In this document: positions 19,629 through 23,308 of the stretch, piece after piece
Position numbering within the stretch: the stretch's first letter is position 1
How the letters are laid out: each line of letters opens with the position of its first letter
Assembly (NCBI GenBank): GCA_965208125.1
Contig: OZ242320.1
Span: 1,440,001-1,504,000, forward strand
DNA from: Candidatus Latescibacterota bacterium
GTDB taxonomy: Bacteria; Latescibacterota; UBA2968
Direction of reading: 5' to 3'
Length of the DNA: 64,000 nt
Notes under the pieces: model-generated
The model's input: only the letters and a program-made list of their open reading frames with translations
What the model was told of the DNA's origin: nothing
Database searches by the model: none
Made by a program: the position numbers and the translations under genes

Positions 19629-21137
19629 CTATTGAATTTTCGCCCAATCGGGCATCACCCCGAGTTCAATACCCAGCACAACGCGACCAACAACAGCAAT
19701 CGCAGCAGTAATCATCACAGCCCCAACCAAATTCAACCCCACGCCCACACGCGCCATATCGCGCATAGAAATTCTATCCGTACCAAATACAATCGCATTG
19801 GGTGGCGTGGCTACCGGCAACATAAACGCACAAGAACACGACAACGTAGCTGGAATCATCAGCAACAATGGATTGAGACCCACAGCCACAGACAACGCCG
19901 CCAAAACCGGAAGAAACATCTCCGCCGTTGCCGTATTGGAAGTCAACTCAGTCAAAAAAGTCATCATCACACACAAACCACCGACCAAAAATAGAGGATG
20001 CAAGCGCCCCATATCCTCCAACTGCTGCGCGCACCAGAGCGACAACCCCGACTCTTTAAAACCACTTGCCAGAGCAAATCCACCGCCAATCAGCAACACA
20101 ATATGCCAGGGTACGTTGCCAGCCGTTTGCCAATCCATCACCCTGGACCTCGCGCCATCTCGCGCGGGCACGACAAACAAAATCAGAGCCATTGCCATAG
20201 CAACCGACCCATCGGTTATCAATCCGCCAGATTCGAAAAACTGAGACCAGCCCGGCAGCGTCCAATCGCCAATTTGAATGGGGCGTCTCGACAACCACAA
20301 CAGCGCCAACAACACAAAATCGGCCAGCACGACCTTCTCGGCAAACGACATCGGCCCCAACTCGGTATATTGCGTTCGCACCACACTCAGATCAATATCA
20401 TCGCCGCGACCGCGAATGCCAAAAACGAGGCAAAGCGCACCCCACGCACAAACGAGCATCACGCATGCCAGAGGCAGAGCAAAAGCAAACCACGTCGCAA
20501 ACGAAATCTCGGGAACCTCTGAAAAATGAATGGATAAAATCCTCACAAAAGACAAATTGGTCGGCGTGCCCACAAGCGTTGCGCTCCCACCAATTGAAGC
20601 CGCATAAGCCACCCCCAGAAACACCGCCGTGCCAAAAGAACTATTGGCCACACCCTGCTCTTCCATTCTAACCACAATTGCAAGTGCAATCGGCACCATC
20701 ATCATCGTTGTCGCCGTATTGGAAATCCACATGGACAAAAACGCCGTCACCAGCATAAATCCCGTCAGAATACACCGGGGACACCCCCCAAAAAGAAGCA
20801 GCAAGCGAAGGGCAATTCGCCGGTGTAAATTCCAGCGCTGCATGCCCAATGCCACCATAAAACCACCGACAAACAAAAAGATAATGTGATTCAAATAAAG
20901 TGGCGCAACCTCTTGCCCGCTCATAATACCCAGCAGGGGAAACAACACCACGGGCAACAGTGCCGTCGCAGCCAAAGGCACGGCCTCTGTCATCCACCAA
21001 ATCGCCATCCAGCAGGCCACACCTGCCGTATGTGTCACCTCGGGATGTCCCGGCTTGAGATCTCCAAAGACTGTGACTCCCACCCCAATCACAGGACCGA
21101 GCCACAGCCCCCAGCGTTCTATTTTTTTATTTAGCAT
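19629..21137 (-). CDS. SLC13/DASS family sodium-coupled di/tricarboxylate or sulfate symporter
   Basis: ATG at 21137 after GGAGA. SMWISNTAT, GTPTN, ELTSNTAT, FMLPVATPPNAIVF. Confidence 0.92.
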   Translation of the reverse strand: MLNKKIERWGLWLGPVIGVGVTVFGDLKPGHPEVTHTAGVACWMAIWWMTEAVPLAATALLPVVLFPLLGIMSGQEVAPLYLNHIIFLFVGGFMVALGMQRWNLHRRIALRLLLLFGGCPRCILTGFMLVTAFLSMWISNTATTMMMVPIALAIVVRMEEQGVANSSFGTAVFLGVAYAASIGGSATLVGTPTNLSFVRILSIHFSEVPEISFATWFAFALPLACVMLVCAWGALCLVFGIRGRGDDIDLSVVRTQYTELGPMSFAEKVVLADFVLLALLWLSRRPIQIGDWTLPGWSQFFESGGLITDGSVAMAMALILFVVPARDGARSRVMDWQTAGNVPWHIVLLIGGGFALASGFKESGLSLWCAQQLEDMGRLHPLFLVGGLCVMMTFLTELTSNTATAEMFLPVLAALSVAVGLNPLLLMIPATLSCSCAFMLPVATPPNAIVFGTDRISMRDMARVGVGLNLVGAVMITAAIAVVGRVVLGIELGVMPDWAKIQ

Positions 21138-21235
21138 ATCTTCTCCATGATTACATCTTTGTAGAGATTCAACAATATACACCATAACACAAAAAGACAA
21201 AACTCGTTTGAGCCAACAAAAAATCACGCCTTTCG

Positions 21236-21263
21236 GGAACCTTTCCAGCCTTTAAAAGTAAAA
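21236..21263 (+). promoter_or_regulatory. Putative ECF (sigmaE-like) promoter for sRNA1
   Basis: GGAACC-16 nt-GTAAAA. Confidence 0.4.
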
Positions 21264-21267
21264 GAAT

Positions 21268-21344
21268 ATGCGACAAAGCGTGTCGCAAAAATATCGGCGT
21301 TGACTCCTATACCCCGGCTGAGTCAACGCCGTTACTTGTTTCTT
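21268..21344 (+). ncRNA. Candidate sRNA1 (two hairpins, loop CUAUACCCCGGCU)
   Basis: TGCGACA/TGTCGCA hairpin, then a perfect 12-bp stem CGGCGTTGACTC/GAGTCAACGCCG and a U-rich tail. Confidence 0.5.
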
Positions 21345-21373
21345 GGAACTCTTTACCGTACAAATGCGTCTAA
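21345..21373 (+). promoter_or_regulatory. Putative ECF (sigmaE-like) promoter for sRNA2
   Basis: GGAACT-17 nt-GTCTAA, close to the RpoE consensus. Confidence 0.55.
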
Positions 21374-21378
21374 TTCGG

Positions 21379-21436
21379 TACCATGCAACATCCCTTGAGG
21401 CGTTGGTTATACCCTCCCAACCAGCGCCTCTTTTTT
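21379..21436 (+). ncRNA. Candidate sRNA2 (terminator hairpin, loop AUACCCUCCC)
   Basis: 12-bp stem GAGGCGTTGGTT/AACCAGCGCCTC with a G-U pair valid only on +, then T6. Confidence 0.55.
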
Positions 21437-21446
21437 ATTTATAAAC

Positions 21447-21503
21447 AAAAAAAGCCTTTGAGGGCTCCCTCCCGACACCCTCAAAGGTTTGTAATTCTGC
21501 TAC
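21447..21503 (-). ncRNA. Candidate sRNA3 (loop UGUCGGGAGGGAG)
   Basis: Minus-strand TTGACA(21538-21533)-17 nt-TATTTT promoter, 10-bp stem CCTTTGAGGG/CCCTCAAAGG, then U7. Confidence 0.55.
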
Positions 21504-21539
21504 CGAAGCAAAATAAATTCCCAAAATAACCCTGTCAAC

Positions 21540-21616
21540 AAAAAAAGCGGGCTGCCAACAGCGCTCTATTTATCGGGAGGGAGGAAATAAACAGAATTGC
21601 TGGGGCAACCCGCTGT
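21540..21616 (-). ncRNA. Candidate sRNA4 (long hairpin, loop UUCCUCCCUCCCG)
   Basis: Minus-strand TTGACG(21651-21646)-17 nt-TATGTT promoter. Stem GCGGGTTGCC/GGCAGCCCGC with a G-U pair valid on minus, then U7. Confidence 0.6.
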
Positions 21617-21816
21617 GCATAAAACATACCCAACTTCAAAAACAACGTCAAGAGTATAGACGAAAATTATTACTTAAGCAGCGTTTGAATATCAAAAACC
21701 GTTGTCCGCTGCTAAAAAAGGTACGCGCCGATCTGCCCCGTCTTTTCCGTTGCTTTTCTCGCGTAAACGAATAATTTATCACATCGTCCCTGAAACCTAT
21801 TGCGAAAGGTCCTCTT

Positions 21817-22044
21817 ATGTTTTTCCTGGCAAACCTCCTCACAATTTACGGCTACATCATCATTGCGCGAGCACTCATCTCATGGATAAATCCCAATCCA
21901 TACAATCCACTCATCAGAATAATATGCGCCATCACAGACCCGGTACTCGTACCCCTTCGCCGTCTGTTGCCCGACCTGGGTGGGCTGGACATCTCGCCCT
22001 TTGTCGCCCTCGTCATTATCTGGTTTATCATATCCCTGATTTAG
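21817..22044 (+). CDS. yggT: YggT family membrane protein
   Basis: ARALISWINPNPYNPL...TDPVLVPLRRLLP..GGLDISP. Confidence 0.9.
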   Translation: MFFLANLLTIYGYIIIARALISWINPNPYNPLIRIICAITDPVLVPLRRLLPDLGGLDISPFVALVIIWFIISLI

Positions 22045-22072
22045 TCTCTCTCTCACAGAAATCGAGGCAGGG

Positions 22073-23308
22073 ATGCCTCTCCTACCTACAAAAGGGCATA
22101 ATTTGAGCGCAGAACCACATCCACCCACCTCTCGCATCCTCATTCCCATCTTGCTAACCGGCCTGTCTGGCTTGCCCCCCTTATCCATTGACATGTTTTT
22201 GCCCTCAATGCCGGCAATGGTTGAGGAGTTCCAAACCCATCCCACCCACATACAGCCCGCCGTCACCTTCTTCTTAATAGCACTGGGCGCAGCACAACTC
22301 GTCTTTGGTCCCCTCTCTGACCGATTTGGTCGCCGCCCCATCTTGCTCATCGGCCTGGCCTGTTACGCCCTCGCGGGTCTGGGCTGCCTGTTTGCACCCA
22401 CAGTGGGCGCACTCATTTTGGCTCGTGTATTGCAGGGATTTGCCGGAGGCAGCGGCCCTTCTGTAAGCCGCGCTGTAGTACGCGACATATACGGCGAAAT
22501 CCACGCCGCCAGAATAATGTCCTACATGGCCACAGCCATTGCCCTCGCCCCCATACTCGCCCCCATAATAGGTGGATTCTTACAAACCTATTTTGGATGG
22601 CAAGCCGTCTTTGTCGTACTCAGTGCGCTGGGCACCATGTTCTTCTTCGGCTACCTCTGGGCAGTGTCTGAAACCAATAACATGATGGACCCCACAGCCC
22701 TGAATCCAACGCGCATGATAGCCAATTACCGCGATCTCCTGAGCAGCCGTCAGTACCTCGGATATACCTTTATGGTCGCCATCTTATTCTGGGGCATGTT
22801 TGCCTTTATCACAAACTCATCTTTTGTACTCATCACAGAACTGAGTGTCTCTCCCCAACTCTACGGCTTCTGTTTTGGATCGGTCGCCGTGGGACTCATG
22901 ATTGGCGCATTTTTATCTGGCCGTCTCAACAATCGCCTCGGCAGCGCACGCATCATTCAAATCGGTAGCCTGATCGCAGCGGGCGCGGGCCTGCTCTTGC
23001 TGGGACTCAAACTCGCGGGCGTATTTTCGGTCATCAGCATCATCGCCCCAATGTGTTTATTCACAATAGGCGGCGGTATGGTGCGCCCCCAGGCAATGGC
23101 TGGCGCAATCGTGCCCTATCCGGAAAAAGCCGGACTTGCCTCCGCCCTCATGGGATTTATACAAATGAGCACAGCGGGATTATTTGTCACCCTCTTCAGT
23201 CAGTTCTACAGCGCCTCATCCATCTCCATGGTCACAGCCATTGCCATCTCAGGCGTCATTGCCCTGCTCGTGCGCCGCACGCTATTGCCTTATGGAGCCA
23301 CACCATGA
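22073..23308 (+). CDS. Bcr/CflA family multidrug MFS efflux transporter
   Basis: SIDMFLPSMP, GPLSDRFGRRP, RAVVRD, APIIGG. Start may be the TTG near 22103. Confidence 0.9.
   Translation: MPLLPTKGHNLSAEPHPPTSRILIPILLTGLSGLPPLSIDMFLPSMPAMVEEFQTHPTHIQPAVTFFLIALGAAQLVFGPLSDRFGRRPILLIGLACYALAGLGCLFAPTVGALILARVLQGFAGGSGPSVSRAVVRDIYGEIHAARIMSYMATAIALAPILAPIIGGFLQTYFGWQAVFVVLSALGTMFFFGYLWAVSETNNMMDPTALNPTRMIANYRDLLSSRQYLGYTFMVAILFWGMFAFITNSSFVLITELSVSPQLYGFCFGSVAVGLMIGAFLSGRLNNRLGSARIIQIGSLIAAGAGLLLLGLKLAGVFSVISIIAPMCLFTIGGGMVRPQAMAGAIVPYPEKAGLASALMGFIQMSTAGLFVTLFSQFYSASSISMVTAIAISGVIALLVRRTLLPYGATP

Follow-up and report, generated by a model that had tools for sequence, protein, structure and literature searches.

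What is encoded by a spacer in which promoter-like sequences, hairpins and U-tracts lie close together on both strands? This question is raised by the 679-nucleotide (nt) spacer (21138-21816) between an SLC13-type symporter gene and yggT in a genome of Candidatus Latescibacterota, a 5.75-Mb single contig that is 96% complete and is labelled G000 here. All positions refer to the window, that is, the whole 64-kb stretch of DNA that was analysed. Direct reading of the sequence reveals four promoter/hairpin/U-tract units within 21236-21651, two on the plus strand (u1 and u2) converging on two on the minus strand (u3 and u4). Judging from the conservation described below, these four are very probably real small RNA (sRNA) genes. 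In a fuller reading, which is held to be somewhat probable, they would comprise Hfq-independent sRNAs with C-rich seeds, two of them driven by an extracytoplasmic function (ECF) sigma factor and one by the housekeeping factor, with a G-rich decoy adjoining.

Four units in the SLC13-yggT spacer

The units and their two flanking genes are the following.

21236..21263, plus strand: u1 promoter, ECF-sigma type (GGAAC 21236-21240, 17 nt, GTAAAA 21258-21263)
21270..21344, plus strand: u1 RNA, about 70 nt (5' hairpin 21270-21286; terminator hairpin 21295-21331)
21345..21373, plus strand: u2 promoter, ECF-sigma type (GGAAC 21345-21349, 18 nt, GTCTAA 21368-21373)
21380..21442, plus strand: u2 RNA, about 60 nt (5' tail, hairpin 21397-21430, U6 tract 21431-21436)
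21510..21538, minus strand: u3 promoter, sigma-70 type (TTGACA 21538->21533, 17 nt, TATTTT 21515->21510)
21445..21503, minus strand: u3 RNA, about 59 nt (hairpin 21487->21454, U7 tract 21453->21447)
21623..21651, minus strand: u4 promoter, sigma-70 type (TTGACG 21651->21646, 17 nt, TATGTT 21628->21623)
21539..21616, minus strand: u4 RNA, about 76 nt (nested hairpin 21614->21546, U7 tract)
19629..21137, minus strand: SLC13-type Na+:sulfate/dicarboxylate symporter gene, left flank (Pfam Na_sulph_symp PF00939, 229 bits)
21817..22044, plus strand: yggT, right flank (Pfam YGGT PF02325, 75.9 bits)

The terminator hairpin of u1 has 12 bp and the loop CUAUACCCCGGCU (21307-21319), and the hairpin of u2 likewise has 12 bp, with the loop AUACCCUCCC (21409-21418). 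Ahead of the u2 hairpin lies a single-stranded 5' tail of 17 nt, whose conserved part is ACCAUGCAACAUCCC (21380-21394). In u4, an outer stem (21614->21604 with 21556->21546) encloses an inner stem (21596->21586 with 21574->21564), and the loop is UCCUCCCUCCC at 21585->21575. The -35 element of u3 begins two bases past the u4 U-tract, and u3, read on its own strand, has the G-rich loop UGUCGGGAGGGAG (complement of 21465-21477). A sequence-only reading of this DNA had placed four promoter/hairpin/U-tail units here, and the elements were read at the positions that it claimed and are conserved in the genus. Its description of a hairpin followed by a U-tail in every unit holds for u2, u3 and u4; the u1 U-tract is weak in G000 (UUACUUGUUUCUU) and amounts to U7-8 in the relatives G016, G018 and G010. 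The C-rich loop motifs that it took to be shared are found in u1, u2 and u4 and not in u3. The idea that all four units are of anti-Shine-Dalgarno (anti-SD) type fails at u3, where the loop is SD-like and complements the loop of u4.

A consensus scan recovered both minus-strand sigma-70-type sites, with 10/12 matches for u3 and 9/12 for u4, and 4 promoter-like sites were observed in 20900-22100 versus 1.4 +/- 1.0 in shuffles. It is because of conservation, not because of such counting of motifs, that the units are considered to be more than chance. The spacer was matched by BLAST in 20/20 other genomes of the genus at 73-95% identity. When the units were searched singly, u1, u3 and u4 were found in 21/21 genus genomes and u2 in 20/21. 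It can be seen from the genus alignments that the loops are invariant or nearly so and the promoter hexamers invariant, the spacers between them being variable. Both GGAAC and (C)GTAAAA of u1 are conserved in 21 genus sequences, and the u4 hexamers are invariant in the same number; the u2 promoter is conserved in 17 of the 21 aligned genus sequences, namely those that carry it.

Pairing in the stems of the four units was as follows.

u1: 97.2% of 288 cells paired, 5 pairs changed on both sides (alignment A5, 16 distinct sequences)
u2: 100% of 240 cells paired, 3 pairs changed on both sides (alignment A6, 20 sequences)
u3: 97.7% of 259 cells paired, 5 pairs (14 cells) changed on both sides (alignment A2, 22 sequences)
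u4: 98.3% of 462 cells paired, 5 pairs changed on both sides (alignment A1, 22 sequences)

The covariation score was equalled by 0/500 shuffles in each of the four alignments, figures that are not to be taken as probabilities since the aligned sequences are related. When the stem partners were slid, pairing went down to 20-67%. Before the sequences of genus g9 were added, covariation had been weak in u1 and u2 (4/500 and 192/500 shuffles, respectively). The check for stem covariation and loop conservation in relatives that the sequence-only reading had suggested thus yields compensatory changes in all four units.

Strand assignment is aided by the wobble pairs. Those of u2 are valid only on the plus strand, each being an A-C mismatch on the opposite one, and three wobble pairs of u4 in G001 are valid only on the minus strand; the earlier statement that G-U pairs fit the assigned strands of these two units is borne out. 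For u3 the wobble evidence for strand is mixed. An A-run upstream of u3 on the plus strand (a U-run on the minus strand) is kept in 21/21 genus sequences, and on the downstream side of u3 these sequences have no T-run on the plus strand. On sequence grounds u3 is transcribed from the minus strand, because of its conserved promoter, its U-tract and its tandem position behind u4 in genera g1, g5, g7 and g9.

Several side observations concern the surroundings of the units. The minus-strand complement of the u1 5' hairpin (21269-21287) is terminator-like, with a 7-pair stem followed by TATTCTTTTA, and could halt read-through from u3 and u4 before the SLC13 gene. To the right of the units, 21676-21715 (TTA...AGCAGCGTTTGAATATCAAAAACCGTTGTCC) aligns with the 3' end of a 907-amino-acid (aa) M16-peptidase gene (Peptidase_M16 plus M16_C). 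In most relatives of the genus the u4 promoter and yggT are separated by this gene, which takes up about 2.9 kb; in G000 it has been deleted, with roughly the last 40 nt as a remnant. In 5/21 genus genomes (G002, G013, G005, G012 and G020), 1.2-4 kb of genes are inserted between u2 and u3, at about 21440 of the window. Of the inserted genes, the first is found about 120 nt downstream of u3, has the orientation of u3 and encodes a 307-aa group-2 sigma factor (G002 L207:66-989), for which the nearest NCBIfam model is RpoS (225 bits, below cut-off). It is followed in G002 by two open reading frames (ORFs) that belong to no family and by an FGE-sulfatase-domain protein; G013 has its sigma gene broken up into two ORFs.

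Distribution, promoter classes and a fifth member

Covariance models were built for u4 (R1), u3 (R2) and u1 (R3), and one sample of 151 genomes of the phylum was searched with all three. R1 scored 62-110 bits in g1 (19/19, plus the own genome), G024 (g5), G036 (g7) and G134 (g8); two of the three g9 genomes gave 37-40 bits. With R2, u3 was found in 23/29 genomes of family f1 and 16/19 of family f2, including 14/15 of genus g6. With R3, u1 was found in 22/29 genomes of f1 (g1, g4 and g9) and in 0/19 of f2. A 17-nt pattern of the u4 loop occurs in about 20 chromosomes among metagenome-assembled genomes of Candidatus Latescibacterota, within 77 mostly chance matches. Among the weak model hits outside the order, those that were read, namely of R1 in g6 (G035, G034 and G030) and f3 (G150 and G138) and the best one of R2 in f3, proved to be plain terminators; R1 also gave a weak hit in f8, R3 one in f3 and R2 three more in f3.

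The tandem of u4 followed by u3, with two TTGAC-type promoters, the same spacing and compensatory stems, is also found in G024 (g5), G036 (g7) and G122 (g9), and its neighbours differ in each of the three. The tandem of u1 followed by u2, with both GGAAC...CGT promoters, is also found in the g9 genomes G122 and G119. In this genus the u2 5' tail ACCAUGCAACAUCCC is letter-identical, and the u2 promoter is conserved in both g9 genomes read. The u1 promoter takes the form GGAAC-N16-CGTTTAA or CGTTGAA in g4 and g9. For u3, the promoter TTGACA-N16/17-TAnnnT is kept in G024, G036 and G122 and in the f2 genomes G039, G025, G040, G034 (g6) and G026 (g7); for u4, TTGAC(A/G/T)-N17-TAnnTn is present in G024, G036, G122, G134 and G033. 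In g6, u3 stands alone behind TTGACA-N17-TATTTT, and a diverged u4-like RNA with the promoter TTGACT-N17-TATATC is located at a separate site in 3/8 genomes examined. Because the tandems and the lone u3 recur beside different genes, the units read as separable, independently promoted genes and not as leaders tied to one neighbouring gene. About 200-250 nt upstream of the lone u3, the four g6 genomes read (L181, L183, L184 and L185) have a common AT-rich block (AATTTATAAATTTGATAAAATCAATAAA).

For the plus-strand promoters, the own genome was scanned with the pattern G[GA]AAC-N16-18-GT[ACT][AT]A, which gave 43 sites outside long ORFs. One of these sites, GGAAC-N18-GTCTAA, with the same motifs and spacing as at u2, is situated 46 nt upstream of an ECF sigma gene (L186:1778-2371). 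The 197-aa product matches Sigma70_r2 (69 bits), Sigma70_r4_2 (68 bits) and Sigma70_ECF (58 bits) of Pfam, and its nearest NCBIfam models are of RpoE/SigW type, below their cut-offs. The operon (L186, G000:C1:839500-842100, minus strand) consists of the sigma gene, a 138-aa ORF and two LTXXQ/Metal_resist (Spy/CpxP-like) proteins. The 138-aa ORF matches no Pfam family and is possibly an anti-sigma factor. The operon promoter is conserved in 18/18 aligned genus genomes; three more are without a BLAST match for the promoter part. Short repeated blocks (GGATAGACG-like) make the 5' untranslated region (UTR) between promoter and start codon longer or shorter in different relatives. A stricter motif also occurs upstream of a 1084-aa ORF and of a 178-aa ORF with a signal-peptide-like start, the N-termini of which presumably resemble an RND-type pump and a redoxin-like lipoprotein, respectively.

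A promoter is therefore shared by u2 and the ECF sigma factor's own operon, and GGAAC...CGT is kept at u1, u2 and u5 (described below) across genera. Because of the motif identity between the u2 promoter and that of the sigma gene, u1 and u2 would most likely depend on the ECF sigma factor of the L186 operon. The two promoter classes distinguished by the sequence-only reading have gained from this match, as well as from the hexamers kept in other genera. A sigma-54 promoter, for which the consensus is GG-N10-GC (-24/-12), was considered for u1 and u2 and rejected. The u1 promoter of G000 does read GG-N10-GC, but the GC varies in the genus (CCAGCC, CCACCC, CCATCC, CCCGCC and others), and u2 has no GC at the -24/-12 spacing.

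The R1 search also detected a paralogue, u5, at G000:C1:4889432-4889512 (32 bits), and found it in 18/19 sampled genus genomes.

G000:C1:4889405-4889520 (about 1445-1590 of L116), outside the window: u5 locus, the promoter overlapping the end of an upstream ORF

The u5 promoter, GGGAAC-N16-GCGTTTAT (GGAAC-N16-CGTTTAT), is conserved in 19 aligned genomes. It is followed by a nested hairpin with the loop (U/C)CCCUCCC(A/G), CCCCUCCC, and then a U-tract; immediately past the U-tract there is a conserved TTGACA-N17 promoter. The seed CCCUCCC is common to u2, u4 and u5, under two promoter classes. Since u5 combines a C-rich loop with a GGAAC...CGT promoter elsewhere in the genome, the C-rich family is larger than the four-unit cluster.

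Loop complementarity, proposed mechanism and rival explanations

The loop region of u4 (CUCCCUCCCGAUA) and the loop of u3 pair over 13 bp in G000, with 11 Watson-Crick pairs plus flanking pairs that include one G-U. Among the 24 genomes holding both RNAs, 21 have loops that pair over 11-14 bp with G-U allowed; composition-preserving shuffles of the u4 loop gave a mean of about 6.5 and rare maxima of 12-13 in 300 trials. In g6, where the loops have different flanks (u3 GCCGGGAGGGAG, u4-like CUCCCUCCCGGC), 12-14 bp still pair, and the flank extension past the SD core is UCG/CGA in g1 and GCC/GGC in g6. The G-U of the duplex is replaced by A-U in G019. Also, the u2 loop variant UUCCCUCCCGA, present in about half of the genus, forms 11 bp with u3. 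Loop-to-loop complementarity was used because full-length duplex energies, which for u3 against the other units were no better than shuffles, ignore the hairpins. The complementarity of the loops is the strongest hint that u3 may pair with C-rich RNAs, with few independent events behind it.

With regard to cofactors, neither Hfq (PF17209) nor CsrA (PF02599) had a match in the own genome, and control genomes were matched by both. The 3' end of 16S rRNA has the canonical CCUCC. Targets were sought with a crude gene caller (4752 calls) by computing duplex energies between each loop and the initiation regions. Strong initiation-region duplexes were enriched only for the u4 loop (397 versus 178 shuffled at <= -16 kcal/mol). 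The top u4 target (-32.9 kcal/mol) was discarded, being an internal site of a 371-aa Fe-alcohol-dehydrogenase-like ORF miscalled as a start. A total of 32 gene calls have GGGAGGG 3-12 nt before the start. The reverse complement of the u2 5' tail ACCAUGCAACAUCCC was seen to resemble a ribosome-binding site plus AUG (GGGAUGUUGCAUGGU); with at most 2 mismatches, the complement of this tail was found in the own genome only at the tail itself and at scattered sites, with no matching gene start.

RNA-library contigs of close relatives (runs X15, X16, X17 and X19, from four studies), aligned over 20900-22000, cover all four units. A single 586-nt contig from X15 extends over 21059-21613. A 315-nt contig from X19 over 21449-21521 has a depth of 87 versus 40-50 nearby, and in X17 the 5' part of the SLC13 gene lies together with 21148-21315 on a 363-nt contig with a depth of 20.6.

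Genes, strands, structures, promoter conservation and loop complementarity were obtained in silico; from these we infer transcription, sigma identity, mRNA pairing and the u3-u4 interaction in the mechanism proposed here. The SLC13-yggT spacer would encode four independently transcribed, trans-acting sRNAs of about 60-76 nt. Transcription of u1 and u2 would depend on an ECF sigma factor with the recognition sequence GGAAC-N17/18-(C)GTnnAA, most likely the autoregulated one of the L186 operon, and that of u4 on the housekeeping sigma factor. Because the ECF sigma operon encodes two LTXXQ (Spy/CpxP-like) proteins, u1 and u2 are expected to be made under envelope-type stress. Long stable hairpins would present the C-rich, anti-SD-like loops (ACCCCGG in u1, CCCUCCC in u2, CCUCCCUCCCGA in u4), which may pair without Hfq to G-rich ribosome-binding regions and lower the translation of target mRNAs. 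With the same seed and an ECF-type promoter, u5 would belong to the same set. Repression of this anti-SD type through the C-rich loops is regarded as fairly plausible. From its own sigma-70 promoter, u3 would present the complementary G-rich loop, titrating u4 and those variants of u2 and u5 that carry UUCCCUCCCG; in this way the C-rich regulators could be subjected to a threshold, like the one that RosA imposes on RoxS and FsrA in Bacillus subtilis. The role of u3 as a decoy is put forward tentatively, at somewhat less than even confidence. More speculative still is an RNA-only circuit in this order of Latescibacterota, in which the constitutively promoted u4 and its decoy u3 form one module, the terminator of the former adjoining the promoter of the latter, and the ECF-driven u2 and u5 saturate or out-compete the decoy under envelope stress. 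A graded signal would thereby become a threshold switch on the translation of genes with G-rich SD sequences, a design that would have been invented independently of Firmicutes.

A number of points weigh against this mechanism. In G018 only a degenerate remnant of u2 is left, the 5' arm of its hairpin being gone, and in G010 the u2 hairpin directly follows the u1 U-tract without a u2 promoter or 5' tail; judging from these two cases, the most divergent members of the genus seem to be able to do without u2 or to have it fused. For the seeds of u1, u2 and u5, no enrichment over shuffled C-rich seeds was found in the initiation regions of the own genome, and the own-genome search with crude gene calls gave no convincing mRNA target. 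The RNA-library contigs show neither ends, strand nor level, and because their depths are mostly like those of the flanking genes, DNA carry-over or read-through is possible. Many possible ECF sigma factors are present in the genome, and the assignment was made on one promoter match. With the exact loop pattern or a laxer R1 search, the u4-like RNA was found in only 3/8 g6 genomes versus 14/15 for u3. Complementarity between the u3 and u4 loops is short in G001 (8), G024 (6) and G036 (10). Intermolecular covariation amounts essentially to one event (g1/g9 versus g6) plus G019, because both loops are nearly invariant. Finally, any SD mimic will by its very nature be complementary to any anti-SD mimic over the GGGAGGG core.

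In another explanation, rather unlikely in our judgement, all four units are real sRNAs, with u3 as a regulator in its own right and not a decoy of u4. Its SD-like loop would bind C-rich mRNA sites, the anti-SD of 16S rRNA or an RNA-binding protein, and the complementarity to u4 would be a by-product of SD/anti-SD mimicry. It would suit such a role that u3 is the most widely kept unit (f1 23/29, f2 16/19) and stands alone in g6, away from any u4-like gene, and that its conserved core CGGGAGGGAG holds GGAGG, the partner of the 16S CCUCC. In addition, G134 has u4 without an adjacent u3, and complementarity falls to 6-10 nt in G024, G001 and G036. However, the complementarity continues past the SD core and changes in step between genera (UCG/CGA in g1, GCC/GGC in g6), the u3 and u4 genes are adjacent in four genera, and no start codon follows the SD-like loop. 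As for a bound protein, sponges of the CsrB/RsmZ type combine multiple GGA-containing hairpin loops with the CsrA/RsmA protein. Such a sponge is unlikely for u3 and was rejected, because no CsrA gene was found and u3 is one hairpin.

It is improbable that the hairpins are instead cis-acting terminators, attenuators or leaders, with the promoters serving the SLC13 gene on the minus strand and yggT on the plus strand. The directions are compatible, u3 and u4 pointing to the SLC13 gene and u1 and u2 to yggT; the X17 contig that links 21148-21315 with the 5' part of the SLC13 gene fits a long 5' UTR, and the RpoS-like sigma gene of 5 genus genomes has the same orientation as u3, about 120 nt downstream of it. 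Nevertheless, each unit has its own conserved promoter and a strong terminator within 60-80 nt, and two units in a row facing two more would be senseless as a leader. What lies downstream also varies from genus to genus. In G000 it is antisense u2/u1, in G002 the sigma gene and in G036 a convergent gene; G024 and G122 have signal-peptide genes there, and g6 has an aldo-keto-reductase-like gene. Moreover, the loops are the most conserved parts, unlike in ordinary terminators, and the plain terminators among the weak hits have unrelated loops. That the region encodes a small protein, or is a copy of a mobile or repetitive element, can be given hardly any credence. The sole ORF of at least 40 aa within the region (21383-21529, 48 codons) has its AUG in the u2 5' tail, 3 nt from the predicted u2 start and thus leaderless-like. 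This ATG is absent in G016 (ACCGGG), the frame past codon 5 is unrelated in G122, the ORF passes through the u2 terminator, and substitutions are compensatory in the stems, not synonymous; the earlier statement that the region holds no credible ORF stands. A dispersed repeat, which the sequence-only reading had named as something that would refute it, was rejected as well: in its own genome the spacer matched itself plus chance matches of 16-52 nt and is single-copy. Stems of at least 10 bp closing CCCTCCC or TACCCC loops are limited in this genome to u1, u2, u4, u5 and the u3 complement.

Significance and comparison with known systems

Because clean alignments, structures and covariance models are at hand, the five RNAs u1-u5 are directly convertible to new families. 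They offer a means of reading the stress state in metatranscriptomes, through ECF-driven u1, u2 and u5 versus the constitutively promoted u3 and u4, for an uncultured group with relatives in samples of sponges and corals. If the pairing of u3 with u4 is real, the sRNA-plus-decoy design of Firmicutes arose independently in a compact, genetically linked and easily transplanted form. If the RNA-only circuit is true, these would be the first riboregulators for an uncultured, sponge-associated phylum. Three features stand out: the phylum, the close genetic coupling of a regulator to the RNA presumed to be its decoy, and a single seed used under two sigma classes.

At gathering score, Rfam 15 gave 0 matches, both for the whole window and for five loci that contain u5 and distant homologues, which agrees with the earlier view that the RNAs are undescribed. 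The families tested included RsaE/RoxS (RF01820), BjrC1505 (RF02356) and Srn266 (RF02822). In a permissive scan the best scores were 21.2 bits (gathering score 63), 18.3 (50) and 16.7 (79), with E-values of 0.65-4.7 for the best scores and 0.65-10 for all; the value of 16.7 against 79 belongs to the RsaE model RF01820. In a literature search, no small RNA appears to have been described for Latescibacterota, and Rfam offers no family that matches.

The closest parallels come from Firmicutes. In the portion of the source available, RoxS, FsrA and CsfG of B. subtilis and RsaE, RsaD and RsaG of Staphylococcus aureus are described as sRNAs with C-rich regions, accompanied by the G-rich sponges RosA and RsaI, respectively (PMC8216469). 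According to the same text, sRNAs of the RoxS/FsrA type act without Hfq on G-rich ribosome-binding regions and under different regulators, and RosA, about 229 nt long, has a sigma-A-type promoter and a terminator to itself and contains three G-rich regions; it was examined by gel shifts with compensatory mutants and by in-vivo assays (PMC8216469). The present set resembles what is outlined there in that C-rich u1, u2, u4 and u5 under separate regulators are joined by a stand-alone G-rich RNA, u3. In silico, u3 has what marks a sponge gene: its own promoter (TTGACA-17-TATTTT), a U7 terminator and a G-rich loop complementary to that of u4. Compared with RosA as portrayed in that text, u3 consists of one hairpin of 59 nt, with its sole G-rich site in the terminator loop, and the gene of this presumed decoy is placed directly behind the terminator of its partner u4. 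Unlike the RoxS/RsaE sets, the present RNAs belong to a different phylum, have no sequence or model similarity to them and are known in silico only.

RNAs of the MicA/RybB type are Hfq-dependent and have 5'-end seeds against omp/lpp mRNAs. As far as the consulted sections of the sources go, the enterobacterial MicA, RybB and MicL are transcribed from ECF sigma promoters and form the repressing arm of the envelope-stress regulon (PMC1851643, PMC1804206, PMC4102768). Like these sigma-E sRNAs, u2 has, in silico, an ECF (GGAAC-type) promoter that is shared with the sigma factor's own operon. Unlike them, the present RNAs have no Rfam match, the search for an Hfq gene in the own genome was negative, and the seeds are located in hairpin loops.

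The cuckoo/CcsR RNAs (RSs0680) of Alphaproteobacteria contain 2-4 adjacent hairpins per RNA, each with the loop CCUCCUCCC, as stated in the part of the source seen (PMC4615179). Common to both, on that account, are anti-SD-like C/U-rich loops, variable stems, several copies per genome and dependence on a stress sigma factor, which for u1, u2 and u5 is a prediction. Membership in this group was rejected, since each unit has a single C-rich loop (AUACCCUCCC, UCCUCCCUCCC or CUAUACCCCGGCU). In contrast to the arrangement described for cuckoo RNAs, there is one C-rich loop per transcript, with the motif CCUCCCUCCC or CCCUCCC, and each transcript has its own promoter and terminator. The available text mentions no G-rich partner RNA for the cuckoo RNAs, unlike the pair of u3 and u4 (PMC4615179). 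On our reading, u1-u5 would represent new RNA families, the design of which is already known from Firmicutes and from the sigma-E sRNAs.

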